A stretch of 64,000 nucleotides of DNA from a virus. Each line of letters starts with the position of its first letter. The first letter of the stretch is position 1. The DNA lies in IMG/VR virus record IMGVR_UViG_2571042447_000001; one strand, given 5' to 3'. Shown piece by piece: positions 1 through 33,468 of this stretch. Both the position numbers and the translations under genes were made by a program. The notes under the pieces were generated by a model. That model had not been told where the DNA came from and searched no databases. It saw only the letters and a list, made by a program, of their open reading frames with translations.

Positions 1-319
1 CCCCGACGAGGAATGGAGCCGCGTCAGAGATGGCGAGTTCGTGTGTGAACCACGTTTTGGTCGCGTAGAAGCCGGCACGGAGCACCAGGAGGGAGCTGAG
101 TGTGTATGCCTTGTCTGCGCCGTCCTGGAAGTACTCGAAGTATCGTGACCACCCCGAATTGTTTTTGCGCTGAGGTGAATCGACGGACATCCACGCCAAG
201 ATGGTGTCCGTGTAGAGCGGTTTGAGCACCGCGTCAGCAGCACCGCCGAGAGGCGGCACGCCGGGGATCATCGCGGTGAGATCGCCCAGCATCTGGATAG
301 TCGCGGAAAGCAATTCGTT
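1..319 (-). CDS. Minor tail protein, C-terminal part (runs off the window edge)
   Basis: Hand translation 319->1 is open: NELLSATIQMLGDLTAMIPGVPPLGGAADAVLKPLYTDTILAWMSVDSPQRKNNSGWSRYFEYFQDGADKAYTLSSLLVLRAGF. This resembles the C-terminal half of actinophage minor tail proteins and continues the 363-1496 protein in a different frame. Confidence 0.8.
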
Positions 320-371
320 GACGATTGAGATCGTCTAGCCCCACCCGAATCAACGAGTGGGGCTAGACGAC
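320..371 (-). other. Structured coding gap (putative translational bypass element)
   Basis: GTC GTC TAG (371-363), perfect 14-bp inverted repeat 331-344/357-370, matching GTC at 322-320, then the conserved frame resumes at AAC. Confidence 0.6.
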
Positions 372-1496
372 CCCCGGCATCGAGTGTCCGCCCGCGTTTA
401 CTTGAACCGCTGTAGAAGGTGAGTACGTGAAGGTCGACGAGCGTATGCCGGTCTCTTCGCCCTCGCGGTAGATCACGTAGGGCATCGACACGTGTGTCGA
501 CTTGTAGCCGGGCATGAAGTAGTCGCCGGGCACGTCGGCATCGACGATCAGGTCGAGCGTGGAGTCGATGAAGTCGTCGGCGAACTTCGCGACTGCGCGC
601 GTGAGACCGGAGTAGAGGTTGCCGCCGTTGGACGTTCCGGTGTAGTAACCGGACTTGTCGACGATGTCGATGACGAGTGCACCATGGCGGAGGTTCGCTC
701 CTGGCCAAGGCAGCGGGTCGCCTTCGAGGTATCGACGCACGACGACGGTCAGTTCGGCGTCCTCGAGGGGGCGCTTCGCCATGTCGTGCCAGGTCTTCCA
801 CCGCGACGAGACGATCGCCCACAAGGTGCCTGCGTTGAGGTCGTCCATGAAGCTGGTGGGTTTGACGACGACATTCCAGTTGGACATGTCGAGCCCGGAA
901 CCCCACGAGGCGATATTCAAGGGATCGTCGGAAAGTGCCCACGCTGAACGATTTTCACGCTTGATCTGAAGGAACAGACTGAGCTTCAGCGCCCAAATCG
1001 CAGGCCCGGCAAGCATAAATACACGCGGAAACTGCAGTGCGGCTGGCAGATTCGGATTCGACCAAACCTGATACCACTTGAGGTTCTCGTAGTCGTGCAT
1101 CCACCGCACGACGAGGACAACGGTACCGTCCTCGCGTTTCTGGACCGAGAAGTCCTGCATGCGGCCGGACCAGCGGGCACCGTCCTTGTCGACGGTGATG
1201 TGGATGTTTCGCTTCTCGCCGCGCGCCATCCGCGCTTTGACGTCCCAGATCCACATTGCTGCTTCGGAGTCGAACGGGATCTCGGTGGATCCGGTTCCCG
1301 AGTCGTTGTTGATCCACTCGAAGTTCGCCGAGTACTCGCATGCGACGACGTGCTGGAGTTTGTAGTCGCCGTCCCAGAGCCGCAGCAGTGGCGGTTCGAG
1401 GCGACGTTGCGTCTCTTCCCGTTCCTGTTCCGTTGTCGCGGCCCAGATCGCGTTGCACTGCGCGAGAAGGTCCTCGTCGATCAGGGGAGCTGTCAT
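363..1496 (-). CDS. Minor tail protein (Gp37-like/baseplate hub), N-terminal part
   Basis: 377-aa ORF with RLWDGDY, KDGARWSG and NPNLPAALQFPRVF motifs typical of actinophage minor tail proteins; second gene after the tape measure. Confidence 0.8.
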   Translation of the reverse strand: MTAPLIDEDLLAQCNAIWAATTEQEREETQRRLEPPLLRLWDGDYKLQHVVACEYSANFEWINNDSGTGSTEIPFDSEAAMWIWDVKARMARGEKRNIHITVDKDGARWSGRMQDFSVQKREDGTVVLVVRWMHDYENLKWYQVWSNPNLPAALQFPRVFMLAGPAIWALKLSLFLQIKRENRSAWALSDDPLNIASWGSGLDMSNWNVVVKPTSFMDDLNAGTLWAIVSSRWKTWHDMAKRPLEDAELTVVVRRYLEGDPLPWPGANLRHGALVIDIVDKSGYYTGTSNGGNLYSGLTRAVAKFADDFIDSTLDLIVDADVPGDYFMPGYKSTHVSMPYVIYREGEETGIRSSTFTYSPSTAVQVNAGGHSMPGVV

Positions 1497-1512: not shown

Positions 1513-2433
1513 TCATTCGAGGCCCCAAGGTCGAGACCAGCGGCGGGGCTGACGAAGGACCACTCCCGCCCCGGGTGCCGCGCCGGTCACTGAGACCGGA
1601 AGCAGCGTCTCGGGCGTGTAGGGCGGGATCTTGTGCAGAAAGAACCTGCCGCCCATCCGGCCGAGCAGGTTCGTGTTGTTGACGTCTCGAACCATCAACT
1701 TCATCGGGTCGAGATCGACCGTCGCGCCACCTTCCGACGCCGACAGGGCGGGAAGTTTGACTGTCCGAGTCGGATACTTCCCACCCGGCACGCGTTCGTA
1801 TTTGCGGCCGACCCAGGAGAAATCAGGAAGCGTCCACGTCCCCGGCGCCGTCACGATCCATTTGATGAGCATCGGCTGGTCGGTCGGGTTCGAAATAGTG
1901 ACAGTCCCGGACCCCGACGTGCCGCCCTCCAGCTTCCACCCGTCGAGCTCGTCCTCCTGGAACCACATCGGTTGCCCGGCGATCGCGGTCATCGGCACGG
2001 TGCCGTGACCGGTCAGGCGCGGATCTTTGTCTGACGCGAAGTCCGGGTTCTCGGACAGCTGGAGCAGCAGATCCCGTGAGCCGGACCGTTCGGTGGTGAT
2101 CCGCATCCGAGTCTGAGATCCGTTGGGGTCCCACGGATCGATTTCGTAGTCCCAAGCCTTGCGCCATCGGGAGTCGTTCTCCTCCCATTCCTCGGACGAG
2201 TCTCCGAGAATTTCGACGCCGAACACGACTTCGCGTTGGTTAATGCGTTTGCCTCGGTAGCTGCCGCCGATCTGGAAGGCCGAAGACTTCCAGATCGTCG
2301 ACACCGGTGCGTCGTAAATGCCTCGCGGGTTGGTGGACAGGTACACCCCTTCGGCGCCCTGACCCTCACCCGCGAGGCAGAAGTACGACCCGTCGCAACC
2401 GAAGATTTCCACCTTGGCTGTCGAATCGAACAA
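1513..2433 (-). CDS. Minor tail protein (distal tail-like)
   Basis: 306-aa ORF immediately downstream of the tape measure; C-terminal PRRWSRPWGLE is typical of this family. Confidence 0.8.
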   Translation of the reverse strand: MFDSTAKVEIFGCDGSYFCLAGEGQGAEGVYLSTNPRGIYDAPVSTIWKSSAFQIGGSYRGKRINQREVVFGVEILGDSSEEWEENDSRWRKAWDYEIDPWDPNGSQTRMRITTERSGSRDLLLQLSENPDFASDKDPRLTGHGTVPMTAIAGQPMWFQEDELDGWKLEGGTSGSGTVTISNPTDQPMLIKWIVTAPGTWTLPDFSWVGRKYERVPGGKYPTRTVKLPALSASEGGATVDLDPMKLMVRDVNNTNLLGRMGGRFFLHKIPPYTPETLLPVSVTGAAPGAGVVLRQPRRWSRPWGLE

Positions 2434-5400
2434 CTAACTCCACCTCGCCCCGTGCTGCAGGGCCAGCTGCGCCGCATAGGTTTTCGCTTTCGCGAATGCC
2501 TCTTCGACAGACTGGACCTGAATGTTGATGGTTGTGGACTGGTCGACCGGGGCAGCGCCGTCACCGGCGTAAATCTGGTCCGGTCGATTGGTGGTGCCGA
2601 CGTTGTACTGCGACCCGGCGGTGAGACCGGGAGCAGCACCCGCCGACGGCACTGTGGCCTTCGACGCCTGCTCAAAGGCCTGTCGGTAGTAGCTGTTCGG
2701 ATCGATGGGAGTGCCCTTGAGCCCGAAAATTTCGAGCAGAGCGTCCTGACCGATCTTGCCGACGTCCTTGCCGTATTTATCCAGGCGTGTGTTCATGTAC
2801 GCCTGCGGATCGAACGCCGCCGCACCCGGAACTGGTGCTGCCGGATCACCTGCGAGAGCAGGTGCTACCGACGGCGATTCGGGTGTAGTCAGCGGTTGAC
2901 CTGTCACTGCCGGGATGTACTGCTGCAGCAACCGCCACTGATCGTCCGTGAACACGACTTCGGGCTTTCCGGAGAGGTTGAAACCGAAGGTCTTGTCCTT
3001 GAAGACCCCGCCCTGGTCGTATCCGGCACCGGTCAACGCTGCGACACCTTGCCCACCGAACTTCGGGTCACGAAGCAGGTAGTTCAGCGACGCACGGAGA
3101 TTCGATTCCGGATCCCAGATGTCGTCGAACCCTGGGTCCTTGTACGACTGGAACGTCGGGTCGATGACCTGAGCGAGACCTTTCGATGGGACACCGTTCT
3201 GCGCGTTGACGTCCCAGTCGTTGATCGCGTTCGGGTTACCACCGGATTCCCGTTGGATCTGGTACAGGTACTTGTCGACCAATGACCGGTCGATACCCTT
3301 TTCGTCGAACAGCTTCTCCACGAGGGGTCGCCACTGTTCCGCACCAGAGTTCTTGTCGTACGGGACATCTCCACCACCGGAAGTGGCTGACTTGCCACGG
3401 ACGATCGTCAAAGCCGCGTCCGTCAACTTGTCGTAAACGGCGAGCGGAATCTGCCCGAACATGCCCAATTCCGAGAACTCCGGAATCATCTTCCGCAGTC
3501 CCTTGACCGGAAGCTCGAACAGGTTCGCGGTCTGATTGCGGACCATGTTGAACGCCCCGCTGATCGCTCCCGTGAACCGTTCGAACAGCGACTTCTTTTC
3601 CTCGTCGCTCATTTCGGCCTGCGGGAAATCGTTCGCCCAGTGCACGTGATCCCAGTGACCAGGCAAGTCACCGGCGTACACCTGATTCGAGAGCTGACCC
3701 TGGTCGGTGATCATGTTTCCGCCGACGTTGTAGAGCAACGGTCCAGGACCCCAAATCAGCTGCGCTGATTGCGGATACGCCTGGAAGATCCAGTCCGCGT
3801 AGGCCTGCTTGTTCGGACCGTCGATGTCGACGGCGCCGCCCTTGCCGTGATAGCCGGAATGGCCGGGGCGAAGAGCGGACGTGATCGTCACTTCCGGGAA
3901 CGCGTCCTGGATGACCTGCGCCATCCAAGTGTCGGTGTCGGAACCGAAGATCACACCACCACCGAGCGCGAACTTCGCCGGTCCCTTGTTCTGGACCCGA
4001 CCTCCGTCTCGGTAGTTGCTGGCCAAGGTCTCGCGGCGCATCCGCTCGACCTCGCCGTGACCGCCTGCAGCCATGACTTCTGCTGCTGTCCAGACGTGCT
4101 CGCCGTTCGAGAGCCAGGCGGGAATCTTGTCGTCGCGCGGGCCACCTGCACCGAACACCGCGCCACCGTCGCGACGATGAATCATCTGGTCCGCGATGTT
4201 TCCGCCGGACTTGCCGCCGACTTCACCGATCGGATCGATCGTCGGCCACGGTTCCAGATCGAGCAGTCCCGCGACTGCGTTCCACGCTTTGCCGAGCCCG
4301 TTGTTGAGCACGGTGTCGATGACGAAGTTGATCGGCCCGGCCAGACGCTCCCTCAATCCGTCCCAGATGTCGCCGATCGCAGAGACGATGCCGCCGAAGA
4401 AGTTTCGCAGTTCGTCGAGCGCGCCCCGGAAGCCTGGGAAGTGCTTTTCGACGATATCCGCGATACCGGAACCGATCGCGGATGGAAGGTTCTTCCAGTC
4501 CGTGACGGCTCCGTTGGTGATCTTCGAGAGGAAATCGTTGGCGAGTCCACCGAGGCCTTCGTTGCGTAGGGTGTCCCACGCCGGCCGGATGGTGTTATTC
4601 CAACCGTCGGAGACCCGTGAGCACAGTTCGTCCCACTTGGCCTTCGCCCCGTCTCGTAGACCGGTGATCGCCGATGATCCGATTTCACCGATCCGGGAGC
4701 TGACGTCGCCGAACCACTTCTTGGTGTCCTCGACCTTGTCGCCGACAGAGCCGGTGAATCCGTCCCACGCCTCCTTGGCCGCATTGATCGACTTCTCCCA
4801 CAACGCTGCGGCCGGAGACTGCCCTTCTTCCGCGCCGATCCAGTCCCACGCGCCGCCGCCGACGAAGTCACCGACGCCGCTGAGTCCGCGGTTGATCGCC
4901 CCGCCCCAGCCGCCGTGGTCCTTGTTCCACAGACCACCGTCGTACTCGTCTGTCTCGTTGTTGTAGCCGAAGAACGAGTTGACGCCTCGCGAGGTTTTGC
5001 CCCACCAGCCACCGTCGTTGTCGGCTCCGTCCCACACTTGCCGCAGTGCGCCCGCGCGTTGCGCCTGACCAGGTTCGAGTTGTTCGGGAACCTTGCCGGG
5101 TGCGTCGCCTTGTTCACCGTCGTCACTGCTTCGGGCGGGCCGGAACGTCGCCAACAGCCCTGCGGCCGTGGAGATTATGCCCATGATCGATTCGACGATC
5201 GACTTGACGTCCTCGAAGAACTTCTTGATTTCTTCGCGACCTTCGGGCGTTCCGAGGAATTCGTTCCAGCGGTCGAGGGTGGACTCGATCGAGTCGAGCC
5301 AGGACTCCCCCACCTCATCCGAGCCAGCGAACATGTTGCCCGCGAGTTCGCCGATTCCCTTGATGATGCGCCAGATTTGAGCGAACGTGTCGATCGCTTC

Positions 5401-7250
5401 CTGCATGAAATTGTGCAGTTGCGACTTACCGTTTTCGTCGATGGTGGTGCGCATCGAGTGGATCATTTCGGCGAAATTTCCGGTCCCCTCCTCGAAAGCA
5501 CCGGTGATAGAGGGGAGGAAATCCGATCCGACGGCGGAGAGGTCCAGTAGCGCAGAACCGAGATTGCCGAGACCATCCAGCAATGGCCCCAACGCTTCTG
5601 CCGTGTTGGTGAGGATCTGCGAGATGTCGTCCTTGACACCATCTGTCATCAGCCAATCCATGGCCGATTTCAGTTTGGTGTTCAACACGTCCGCCAGCGC
5701 CGTCAGACCGTCCGTCAGGATCGGCATGTAGGTGCCGCCGAGCTCCGAGAACTTCTGCCCCATCCCGTCGAACAGCGCGTCCTGTACCGAGAACCGGAGT
5801 TCCTTCCAGCGTCGGACATTCCGCGTGTCATCTCGACGAACTGCCGTGCATTCGGCGAGAGGTTCGCGAGCGCCTCGTTGTACTTCTCGAGGGACGGCGA
5901 TCCTGCTGCCATGGTGTCGTTCAGGTTCTGCTGAGCGACCGCCACGTTGTCGAGTGCCCGCTCAATCCCTCTCTGCGACTCAGCGACTCGATCCTGCGCA
6001 TCGACGATCGCTTGCTTCGAGTCGACGACACGGTCATCGGCGTCCACCACTGCCTGTTGAGCAGCGACGACCTGGTCCGCACCTTCGACGCCCTTGGCGT
6101 TGACGTCAGCGACCTCGGCCCGGAGATCCTGGTTCGCCTCGCGGACCTCCGTCAGACGCTGGACCTGCTGGCGGTAGGCGAGATCGGCCCTGCGTAGCTG
6201 GGTCGGGGTCGTATCGCCGGAGCTTCGGGCTTCGACCAGTCGTTCCCAGGACTCCTGAACCCCGAGTAGCGCGTCCTCTTCGTCGAGGGAACTGCGCTTG
6301 AGGGCGAGGTTCATGTCCTCGATCTGCTCGGTTGCGGCCTTGCGCGCCTGCGTGAGCGACTTCTGTGCGAGTTCCGCGTCCGCCACCGCGCGACGGTTGT
6401 TCTTCTCCGCAGACTCGACCTCACGCAGTGCTCGTGTGTGGCCCTTCTCTGCCTGCTCCACCGCGTCGATCGCGTCGGCAAGAGAGCGCTGAGCGGCCTC
6501 GGTCTGCTTCGCTGCGGCTGCCGACTCCTTCGCGGAGTTCTTGGCCGCTTCCTTGCCTGCCTCGAAGGCGTCCTTGATGCCGGTGGCACCGACTGCGATC
6601 GTTGCGAAGGTCGCGGCGGCAGCAGCACCCATCGCGGGGAGCAGTGCAACGACCCCTGCTGCCTGGACGAGTTGGCCGATGAGCGGTACCAACGACACTG
6701 CACCCAACGCGACCAAAGCGACCTTCGCCAGACCTGCACCGGAAGCAATGCCACTGAGAGCTGCTCCGGCACCGCCACCGGCGCCGCCACCTCCACCACC
6801 GGCAGGGATCGGCGGCATGCCACGAATCAGCGCCTCGAGCGCCAATACCTGTGCGGTCAGAGCTGCGACCTGAGTCATCGCCGCACCTGTGTCGATGTCC
6901 AGGTTCATGTGGACGTCTCTGATCGATGCCCGGAACGCCTGCATTTGCGCATGTGCCCTGGTCAGGTCCAGATCGGCGCGAACGGTGACGTCGGCTTCCA
7001 TCCCCTGCAACTGGGTACGTACGCGATTACGCAGCCCCGTGAGATTCGGGGTGATGTCGACCTCGACTGCCGGCATGTTCCGGGTACCGTTCCGCACCCG
7101 CTGGTGGAATCCGGCAAGGTTGGGCTCGACCTGAACAGTTGCGTCGACGCGACGCGAATTGACGAGGAATCGCAGTCGCTCGTGGAAGTTCGCCGATAGC
7201 TCTGGTTCGACAATCAGCCGTGCGGATCCCGCGTTGTAACTGTCGGCCAC
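2434..7250 (-). CDS. Tape measure protein with C-terminal peptidoglycan-hydrolase motifs; apparent 1-nt frameshift near 5803
   Basis: ORFs 5715-7250 and 2434-5763 join if one base is restored (GMSDA-WKELRFSVQDALFDGMG). Long Ala/Gly-rich helical sequence; SLT-like RESGGNPNAINDWD and YHGKGGAVDI...HWDHVH motifs. Confidence 0.9.
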
Positions 7251-8468: not shown

Positions 8469-8504
8469 ACGCCCGCCACACCAGACGGTTGATGTGGCGG
8501 GCGT
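8469..8504 (-). terminator. Hairpin/terminator after the major tail gene
   Basis: Inverted repeat ACGCCCGCCACA / TGTGGCGGGCGT directly downstream of the 8515 stop. Confidence 0.6.
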
Positions 8505-12884: not shown

Positions 12885-13029
12885 GAGGTGGCCCTTCTTG
12901 CCGCGCCGGGCGGCGGGTAGGCAGACGGCACGACGCCAGGTCGGTACCGCGGGAAATGTGAAAGGAGCCCCGACGCCAGGTCAGAGGCTTGAAGGTCCCG
13001 GTTCTGCCGCCAGGCAGGTACGGGGGACG

Positions 13030-13101
13030 TTGATGCGGCAGGGGTCGAACCTGCGACTCGCCGGTCAGGAACCGGTTGCTCTCCGGGTGAGCTACGCACC
13101 A
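13030..13101 (-). tRNA. tRNA-Arg(CCT)-like gene, no encoded CCA
   Basis: Cloverleaf: acceptor TGGTGCG/CGCATCA, D arm GCTC-ACCCGGA-GAGC, anticodon arm CCGG-TTCCTGA-CCGG, T arm GCAGG-TTCGACC-CCTGC. Confidence 0.6.
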
Positions 13102-19264: not shown

Positions 19265-19297
19265 GGTCACCCCTCCTTTCCTGTGATCCGGGCAGCA

Positions 19298-19333
19298 GAA
19301 AGCCCCGAGACACTTCGGCGACTCGGGGCTTTC
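19298..19333. other. GC-rich hairpin upstream of the peptide gene
   Basis: GAAAGCCCCGAG / CTCGGGGCTTTC 12-bp inverted repeat. Confidence 0.6.
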
Positions 19334-19393
19334 AGCTGCTGGTGGGCTTGTGGTCAACCCGCAACCCGGTTGCCCGGGTGGGGAAGTCGGTGA

Positions 19394-24672: not shown

Positions 24673-25696
24673 TCGTCAGCCCGGGCCGACCGGGTTTTTC
24701 CCTTTCCGTTCCCCGACCCACATGCCGAACACCACGCGGTAGTACTTGGAGGCAAGGCCTTTCGCGTGGCGTTCGGACATGTGTTTGCGCAGGTGGGCGA
24801 CCAATCGGGTCCATGCGCCGTCTGGCGTGGAGGCCCACTTTGCGAGGCCTTCTGCGCTGCTGGTCCAGTACTGCAGGAACGGGTCACGACGTGGTGATTG
24901 CATCGTCTCCCCCGTTTCCTTCTTCGGTTGGTTGGCCGGGCAGCAACACCTCACCCATTGAACGGTGGGCATGTCGTGGGTGCGCTTCGCTCCCGGCCCT
25001 GGCTGACTCGTGCCAGGGCCGGGTGACGTTGACAAGCCGATCCTCGAGGTCGAGGGGTTCGGCATCCGGCCAAGTTTGTGCCTTCGCGTGTGTTCGGTCC
25101 GCGAGGAGTGAGTCGATTCTGCGACTGAGTATCTGGTGAAATCGTCGGTCGGGCGCTCGTCGTCGGAGTTCGACTACTCGGCTGAGAAGCCTGTCGATGT
25201 CACCGATGGTTCGGGCGGTCATTGTTCCGCGCCAGGTACTGTCGCATCTGTTCTGCCTGACCAGGCTGCCGACCGAAGGTCAGGATAGGGACTTTCGGCA
25301 CATTAGGTACGTGTCCATAGTCCCGATTCTGAGGTCGCGTTGGTACTGGGTCGAGTCGATAGGCGATGCGTCGCAACCAATTCGAGAGTCTTCGCTTCAT
25401 GCCCACCTCGTCTCGTTTGTGTGCCCCGACCGCATCCCGAGGTAGCGGAAACGTGCGGTCGGGGCGAAGCCCTCGGCGCTGCTGGCTGGCTGCATCCTGA
25501 GGGAGTCTGGGTGCGGCAATGCCCGGACGCCGACCGTGAGTGGCGTCCGGGCATTGCCCGCTATTCGGTTGTGCCCCGGTCTGCATCTACGTTCCGGAGA
25601 GCGTGGCTACAGTGACCCGAATGGCCTAGGGAGTACCGGAGAATTTGGGACCGGATTTTTCGACACGTGTCCCGCGAGAGACAGAGTAGACGCTGT

Positions 25697-33323: not shown

Positions 33324-33468
33324 GAGTTCCGAGTAATGGTTGCGGTGAGGGTGACGTAGGCGCTCTAGCCAACTGAGCTACACCGGATGCAGATCCGGTG
33401 ACGGGATTCGAACCCGCGACATCCCCATTAACAGTGGAAGTAACCCTCGGTGCTTCGCACCGGAACTC
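33324..33468 (-). ncRNA. Y RNA (YrlA-like) unit D with permuted tRNA-Asn-like domain
   Basis: Stem GAGTTCCG/CGGAACTC; CUGUUAA...GUCGCGGG-UUCGAAU-CCCGU; closed stem CACCGGA/UCCGGUG; UAGCUCAGUUGGCUAGAGC. Confidence 0.8.

Follow-up and report, generated by a model that had tools for sequence, protein, structure and literature searches.

How might a phage tail gene stay functional when a conserved motif within it is broken by a stop codon and a long hairpin? The question is raised by a 64,000-nucleotide (nt) stretch of viral DNA, IMG/VR virus record IMGVR_UViG_2571042447_000001 (hereafter the window), at whose edge the minus strand carries a Gp37-like minor tail gene of a prophage that is interrupted by an insert of 49 nt. 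An earlier inspection of the letters alone (hereafter the sequence-only reading) had proposed that ribosomes hop over the insert, as they do in gene 60 of phage T4, and had named a gene-inactivating mini-insertion as the alternative. We compared the locus with its relatives in genome, virus and metagenome collections and in cultured phages. Judged on these sequence comparisons, programmed translational bypass appears to be the best explanation, and we put its probability at about 0.6.

One tail gene in two frames

The N part of the window gene (positions 363..1496, minus strand) comprises 377 codons and a TAG and ends in ...GGHSMPGVV*. The C part (1..319, minus strand), which begins NELLSATIQ..., is cut off by the window start and is complete, with 186 codons, in a related IMG/VR provirus (L001, 2682-3242). 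The two parts combined match the whole profile of a PF14594/PHROG 110 minor tail protein. The N part matches profile positions 2-249 of PF14594 (Sipho_Gp37; E = 3e-77) and 31-399 of PHROG 110 (E = 1e-129), the C part matches positions 249-370 of PF14594 (E = 9e-30) and also PHROG 110 (E = 4e-60), and the profile coordinates of the two halves meet exactly, 249 to 249 in the first case and 399 to 399 in the second. About 85 uninterrupted homologues read GGHSMPGVNE, which bears out the statement of the sequence-only reading that removing the insert restores a conserved MPGV-NE. The downstream frame (319..1) is shifted by +1 relative to the upstream open reading frame (ORF; 1496..363), and the two do not overlap; as had been argued from the letters, a simple frameshift is excluded in the window, where the open frames miss each other by 31 nt. 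The window gap is a non-coding stretch of tens of nucleotides that splits one conserved protein gene.

The letters of the insert, its hairpin, both TAG triplets, the GTC at 322-320 and the point of resumption were all confirmed on the minus strand. The insert, which constitutes the coding gap, occupies 320..368 between SMPGV and NE. Ahead of it the codons run ATG (380-378), CCG, GGG and GTC (371-369), the last being the conserved Val of MPGV. Within it follow a second GTC (368-366), the TAG that ends the upstream frame (363..365), the remaining hairpin, a 4-nt tail (AATC) and a third GTC (320..322), which abuts AAC GAA TTG, the start (N E) of the resumed conserved frame. The two GTC (Val) codons at 366..371 are candidate take-off codons, and the third GTC is the candidate landing triplet. 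The hairpin (327..374) consists of a 5' arm at 374-354, in which the TAG sits, a loop at 353-348 and a 3' arm at 347-327, and its base is made of the exon codons GGG GTC. Its stem has the predicted dimensions, 14 perfect base pairs (bp) and 21 contiguous pairs counting G.U; an inverted-repeat scan gives 17 nt at 94%. The folding energy of the 101-nt context is -57.9 kcal/mol (z = -7.9), a value equalled by none of 200 shuffles, and the covariance model R1 matches the insert at 53 bits (E = 2e-11), the sole copy in the window. Another TAG (335..337), 15 nt before the landing triplet, closes the resumed frame, and therefore a single frameshift cannot join the halves.

An assembly error was ruled out by the identical insert in independent records, namely the provirus L001 (97% identical to the window) and a 2.8-kb GenBank contig (L002/L039, NZ_JBEOXI010000506.1; 98% identical). 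The latter is filed under a Streptomyces sp. assembly of 1340 contigs with 6% contamination; since the other relatives all belong to Rhodococcus, Nocardia or Mycobacterium, contamination probably accounts for this small contig. The truncated 377-amino-acid (aa) product is represented by 12 member sequences on 11 contigs, and at least 13 DNA runs from several organisms contain the gene.

Both halves of the gene are under purifying selection. Compared with L001 and L039, all 19 codon differences of the C part are synonymous; compared with L001, the N part has 32 synonymous differences and one non-synonymous. In a five-member Nocardia clade that carries the hairpin throughout, the ratio of non-synonymous to synonymous divergence (dN/dS) of the C half is 0.08-0.16 at dS values of 0.19-0.68 and equals that of the N half, several N-half values being artefacts of short loci that were disregarded. 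The C frame of 182-186 codons is kept in all 33 insert-bearing loci. The nine codons from the junction to the first in-frame ATG are conserved, their changes being synonymous, and in L056, L058, L200, L208 and L254 no more than one to four codons, none of them a start, are open in the resumed frame ahead of the junction; therefore, ribosomes must come from upstream. These patterns indicate that the gene is not dead and that ribosomes translate its C half despite the insert.

The hairpin family, its carriers and its mobility

Searches with both gene halves retrieved 234 loci from genome, virus and metagenome collections. The insert is absent from about 85% of the homologues; the comparison yielded 21 sequence-distinct inserts of 49-59 nt, all lying precisely between SMPGV and (N/D)E (site 1), from Rhodococcus, Nocardia and Mycobacterium-like prophages and from soil metagenomes. 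Each consists of a 19-22-bp stem, which includes the exon Gly-Val codons at its base, and an A/C-rich tail of 5-16 unpaired nt behind it. The sequence-only reading had expected the insert to be either absent from relatives or conserved with a covarying stem; the alignment revealed absence in most homologues and stem covariation across the 21 variants. In the 19-pair stem consensus, 97% of cells are paired and 13 pairs show compensatory changes. Double-change cells number 87 versus 28 expected from shuffles, with none of 500 shuffles as good, and a slid-register control gave about 50% pairing. The third base of the exon Val codon itself covaries with its partner in the 3' arm (UA 8, GC 7, CG 5). 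While the stem changes compensatorily, the peptide encoded by the insert is not conserved, and no conserved outer helix joins the flanks. Frequent G.U pairs, together with a covariance model that scores the sense strand above the opposite strand in every case, indicate a structure in messenger RNA (mRNA). Taken together, these features suggest that the hairpin is a selected sense-strand RNA structure.

The length of the site-1 inserts does not follow the reading frame: modulo 3 it is 0 in four variants, 1 in seven and 2 in ten, and the inserts of close relatives differ by one nucleotide (52 versus 53 nt). In seven of the 21 variants, the window included, stops exclude a single frameshift. No single frameshift rule would cover the site-1 variants.

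Homologous hairpins were found at two further sites of the same gene. At site 2 (NPF/LP; L246 and L254), TTT precedes the insert, TTC is its last triplet and the stem includes the exon codons CCC TTT; at site 3 (GPSV/W; L247), GTT stands both before the insert and as its last triplet. Much shorter, frame-breaking inserts lie at other conserved motifs: they occur in the related contigs L204, L213 and L218, where 16 nt follow VWS at about 886-905 (TCT AGA ... TCC, with the rare AGA and an overlapping TAG), and in L208 and L221, where 5 nt (TTG TAG TG) and 8 nt (CTT TGA CACCC) follow HL at about 880-895. These very short inserts may be short hops, frameshift sites or metagenome errors. An indel at about 1090 was observed in L210.

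Carriers among cultured phages surfaced only through blastn with the hairpin itself; megablast of the window gene against cultured phages gave no match, and tblastn with two read-through peptides revealed no cultured carriers. A metagenomic hairpin proved 94% identical to the minor tail gene of Mycobacterium phage Spartacus over the hairpin only, the two genes being distantly related. Related hairpins are present in at least 13 cultured mycobacteriophages, with the insert at the equivalent site of a minor tail gene that in about 490 relatives, such as Bobi (gp18), is a single uninterrupted gene reading ...GGRSPKWLNDLMNATF.... The insert is 53 nt long and lies between W and L in Spartacus and ThetaBob (both aligned), and LunaBlu, Sabbb, Guppsters, Renaud18 and Cornie were placed in the same 53-nt class by 93-100% junction identity to Spartacus. 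It is 54 nt long, in frame and ends in TGA in MadMen, Pollywog and Kersh (checked in Pollywog), and is 55 nt long in Che9c, Sbash and Mycofy1 (checked in Che9c). R1 recognises Spartacus, ThetaBob, Pollywog and Che9c and does not recognise Bobi. In all four recognised phages the Leu codon is directly preceded by TGA, a near-cognate of the Trp codon TGG that would serve as take-off codon. Che9c has Ile where the other carriers have Met, and hence no ATG near the junction, and it keeps an intact homologous C frame of 190 codons. Past the 55-nt hairpin the RefSeq entry Che9cp18 (L290, NC_004683.1 15832-17493) runs in the wrong frame into an Arg/Pro/His-rich tail, and the true 190-codon C part (locus 1617-2189) is without annotation. 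Since the carriers form plaques, the interrupted tail gene works in them.

Several lines of evidence show that the insert moves. The 19 hairpin rows require 15 state changes on a tree built from 193 protein sequences that flank the junction, and at least 14 gains or losses of the insert are forced by well-supported branches. The genes of L204 and L218 are 99.6% identical upstream and 97% identical downstream, and a 59-nt insert is present in one of them; the two also differ by six synonymous changes in the 22 nt preceding the insert. It is because of these gains and losses, and of near-identical genes differing by the insert, that we regard it as mobile, and the same two observations rule out an ancient, vertically inherited insert.

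Insert-bearing alleles also have a recoded flank. GGA at codon -8 is present in 52% of insert-bearing alleles against 4% of other alleles, GGR at codon -7 in 100% against 47%, TCG at codon -5 in 100% against 50%, GGG at codon -2 in 74% against 9% and GAA at codon +2 in 100% against 30%, and CCC at codon -3, found in 39% of other alleles, is found in 0% of those with the insert. The upstream flank of the window insert, GGC GGA CAC TCG (381..392, minus strand), belongs to this synonymous-codon signature. Spartacus, likewise, is the same as Bobi for about 75 nt and then has seven synonymous differences in the last 27 nt (GGA GGA CGA TCG...). The signature reflects either co-conversion with the insert or a functional requirement, two causes that are inseparable here. 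The purine-rich GGA GGR Gly codons of the carriers, about 20 nt upstream, are Shine-Dalgarno-like, and the signature (GGA GGR, TCG, GAA) extends to a distantly related mycobacteriophage gene (L287 2480-2500).

That the element might be a dispersed repeat, such as a miniature inverted-repeat transposable element (MITE) or a repetitive extragenic palindromic (REP) sequence, had been raised by the sequence-only reading as a finding that would speak against its proposal. It can be rejected because R1 matches are confined to this tail gene: the window has a single copy, all matches in the 234 loci lie inside the gene and none lies outside it in 1.15 Mb of flanks. A 9.7-Mb Nocardia genome has one strong R1 copy, in the tail gene, and two genomes with uninterrupted alleles have no copy. 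No endonuclease ORF adjoins the split gene in the window, L001, L031 or Spartacus. In L035 (Nocardia pseudovaccinii), an opposite-strand gene of 374 aa (3179-4303) with a faint Mrr-like match is inserted immediately behind the split tail gene; it may be a nuclease linked to the cassette, or else an island that has nothing to do with it. On the whole, we consider it highly probable that the cassette is real, conserved, mobile and harmless.

Translational bypass and the rival explanations

We propose that the window insert is one of a group of GC-rich hairpin cassettes, about 45-60 nt long, that enter conserved motifs of Gp37-like genes in phages and prophages of Mycobacteriales, and that a fraction of the ribosomes would bypass the cassette, keeping the gene functional. 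In the window, peptidyl-tRNA(Val) would leave the mRNA at GTC, the next codon being the TAG within the hairpin; the ribosome would slide about 43-46 nt without decoding, the tRNA would re-pair at GTC 322-320 and decoding would resume at AAC, giving one full-length protein, ...MPGV(V)NELL.... In its general form, the proposal is that release takes place at or after the junction codon at the stem base and re-pairing at the last triplet of the insert. We infer the hop, its exact take-off codon and its efficiency from sequence. A low efficiency could suffice, because few copies of a minor tail protein are required; the sequence-only reading had suggested that the hop might throttle virion output. 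Gene conversion between co-infecting phages would be the likeliest route of spread of the cassette, since flanking synonymous sites change along with the insert.

In five classes of insert, at least two of the three bases of the junction codon recur in the closing triplet; the junction residues of these classes are Val (site 1), Phe (site 2), Val (site 3), Trp (mycobacteriophages) and Ser (short insert). The pairs are GTC/GTC in the window, TTT/TTC in both site-2 loci, GTT/GTT at site 3, TGG/TGA in mycobacteriophage inserts of three lengths and TCT/TCC in the 16-nt insert, and L192 reads GCC-TAG...GCC. At site 1 the third base of the last triplet follows that of the Val codon (GTG with NNG in 7/7, GTY with NNC or NNT in 14/14), the variants having partly shared ancestry.

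Several observations weigh against a hop of the gene 60 kind. The matched codons expected in relatives were found in part: scored against early zero-frame codons, the site-1 take-off and landing triplets match exactly in nine of 21 variants and synonymously in seven, and a match is absent in five, whose landing triplets are ttc (three times), ttg and gcg. Nor is a take-off codon followed at once by a stop the rule. It holds for the window, L264 and L192 (3/21); five further variants have a stop within six codons, and 13 have none inside the insert. The gap has no Shine-Dalgarno-like element, its A/C-rich tails being without GAG or GGAGG, and it is about 20 nt upstream of the insert that a GGA-GGR codon pair is enriched. 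No nascent peptide is shared, the three insertion sites having different upstream peptides. The stem-loop includes the take-off codon, and its GC stem of 20 bp far exceeds the take-off stem-loop of gene 60. In phages of the Spartacus type an ATG five codons past the junction overlaps the zero-frame stop (TAATG), and two translationally coupled polypeptides are possible there. Finally, L200 and L208 have A-AAA-AAG, a classical -1 slippery site, just before the junction.

Of the rival explanations, a split gene, in which the N fragment ends in or after the hairpin, the C fragment (re-)initiates separately and the two assemble non-covalently, would accommodate Spartacus, ThetaBob and Pollywog gp16/gp17, where a stop overlaps or lies near the ATG five codons past the junction, and it agrees with database annotators, who call two genes. 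We nevertheless consider it unlikely. The only near-junction start in the window is a TTG, the third codon, without a Shine-Dalgarno sequence; the first ATG lies 10 codons in and the zero-frame stop 50 nt upstream. Among the site-1 variants, 13 of 21 run on in the wrong frame to a stop 40-100 codons downstream, and in five the resumed frame offers no possible start where it is open; Che9c has Ile, not Met, and the codons ahead of the first ATG are kept by purifying selection. We attach a distinctly lower probability to translation of the insert itself, by a +1 or -1 frameshift or stop readthrough near its 3' end, which would add some 17-20 residues. Such decoding would be compatible with the long overlap of both open frames in ten variants, with the A-AAA-AAG of L200 and L208 and with the Pollywog-type inserts, which are in frame with a single terminal UGA. 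It cannot apply to the window, given stops in both frames and an overlap of -31 nt, or to six other variants; close relatives would need +1, -1 and readthrough, and it is the stem that evolves compensatorily and not the encoded peptide that is conserved.

Removal at the RNA level, the hairpin being excised from the mRNA as a mini-intron or by a nuclease plus ligase, would share with bypass the advantage of frame independence, but seems slightly less probable still. The insert boundaries vary, with no conserved 5' U and no conserved 3' G, and the 64-kb window contains no Rfam family except one tRNA and no group I or group II intron. Four soil metatranscriptomes, in thin coverage, gave one RNA-library contig that spans the intact insert and three runs that break on both of its sides; they gave no insert-skipping joints at a very low depth, coverage that is too shallow to decide splicing or expression. 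Excision would also leave unexplained the likeness of the last triplet to the take-off codon. Least probable in our estimate is the inactivating insertion named as the alternative at the outset, whether in a defective prophage or in a gene rescued only by rare, precise deletion of the palindrome from the DNA. Palindromes between short repeats are deletion-prone, near-identical genes with and without the insert do exist, and the sequence-only reading had reported other lesions in the window; however, carrier and non-carrier alleles differ by a recoded flank of 22-27 nt, which goes beyond a plain deletion, lineages retaining the insert show purifying selection on both halves, and the stem evolves compensatorily. 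Viable phages carry the element: there are at least 13 plaque-forming carriers, and the sequenced stocks of Che9c and Spartacus already suggest infectious particles with the insert. Selection on the C half, covariation of a stem that includes the take-off codon, the occurrence of inserts in all frames and with in-frame stops, landing triplets that follow the junction residue at four different sites and the plaque-forming carriers favour a gene-60-like hop over inactivation. That the element is a mobile, site-specific cassette of many phages goes beyond the sequence-only reading.

Known bypass elements and further features of the locus

T4 gene 60 contains a 50-nt translational bypass with a MobA homing-endonuclease cassette (reviewed in PMC5009743; Manning and Atkins, bioRxiv 10.1101/2022.08.31.505936). 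As in gene 60, the insert described here is a segment of about 50 nt inside a conserved phage gene that stays functional, it offers a take-off codon followed by UAG in a stem-loop and, in the window, a matching landing triplet, related phages have it at one and the same site, and its behaviour is that of mobile DNA. The two are unrelated in sequence, and they differ in the gene concerned (a tail protein here, a topoisomerase subunit in T4) and in their carriers, here phages of high-GC actinobacteria. Unlike in gene 60, the stem of about 20 bp covers nearly the whole gap, the gap is without a Shine-Dalgarno-like element and a GGAGG-like codon pair lies about 20 nt upstream, no endonuclease gene adjoins the insert and the tail-gene family does not conserve a stop after take-off.

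Another parallel is found in Magnusiomyces capitatus mitochondria, in the byp elements (Lang et al. 2014, summarised in PMC5009743 and cited in PMC10732093). As far as that summary describes them, byps are likewise short (27-55 nt), GC-rich, hairpin-forming and mobile, lie in coding sequence in any frame, have take-off and landing triplets that are usually, not always, matched, and are tolerated through ribosome jumping. By the same account, they are spread over many mitochondrial genes of an AT-rich genome, whereas the cassette is limited to three motifs of one phage gene and meets a bacterial ribosome in a high-GC background. Streptomyces phage Hau3 and its relatives have candidate bypassing at UUA in terminase genes (PMC10732093). 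This is also recoding in an actinobacterial phage, in which a hop joins two ORFs of one structural or packaging gene; the Hau3 gap, however, is short and rare-UUA-dependent, without a long hairpin or a 50-nt cassette, and lies in a different gene.

Full-text literature searches returned gene 60 and its homologues, the byps and the Streptomyces UUA candidates, and no description of the present element; the hairpin-insert family in the Gp37-like tail gene is previously undescribed. We think the odds somewhat better than even that it represents a third natural family of long-range (about 45-55 nt) bypass elements, mobile, frame-independent and homing into conserved motifs of an essential actinophage tail gene, and that it includes Che9c, Spartacus and Pollywog, in which peptidyl-tRNA(Trp) would land on UGA. 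Efficient long-range hopping of bacterial ribosomes rests essentially on one studied case, T4 gene 60 with its homologues, and this family bears on the generality of hopping and on the origin of such inserts. Its natural variants number in the dozens and differ in stem sequence as well as in length, frame, stop codons and junction residue, and several of its carriers grow on Mycobacterium smegmatis, making the mechanism directly testable. Annotation is affected as well, Che9c gp18 being given in the wrong frame and other phages listing two minor tail proteins for one gene. In engineered or synthetic mycobacteriophages, recoding of 'synonymous' sites near the insert could destroy function.

The window edge lies within the tail module of the prophage, where the tape measure gene (5763..2434, minus strand) and a minor tail gene of PHROG 106 (2433..1513, minus strand) precede the Gp37-like gene. 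The prophage has no suppressor tRNA, its tRNA genes being tRNA-Arg(CCT) at 13029-13101 (minus strand), inside the prophage, and tRNA-Asn(GTT) at 33392-33464 (minus strand), which may mark the integration site. Three other inverted repeats of the window (25515-25558, 19292-19339 and 8469-8504) are strong and GC-rich with arms of 15-18 bp; R1 scores them near chance (<=12 bits), and they resemble ordinary terminator-type hairpins.

The tail protein is also interrupted by mini-inteins of about 155-160 aa (C...HN then T or S). They lie six or nine residues past the hairpin site (NELISA/C..., NELISAAIQ/C...) and at two further sites (NKAY/C..., RPLY/C...), and were seen in L047, L049, L055, L057, L142, L143 and L149 (at about 3600-4100) and in L221 and L261. 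The recoded flanks and these neighbouring inteins mark the motif as a hot spot for selfish inserts in tail genes.

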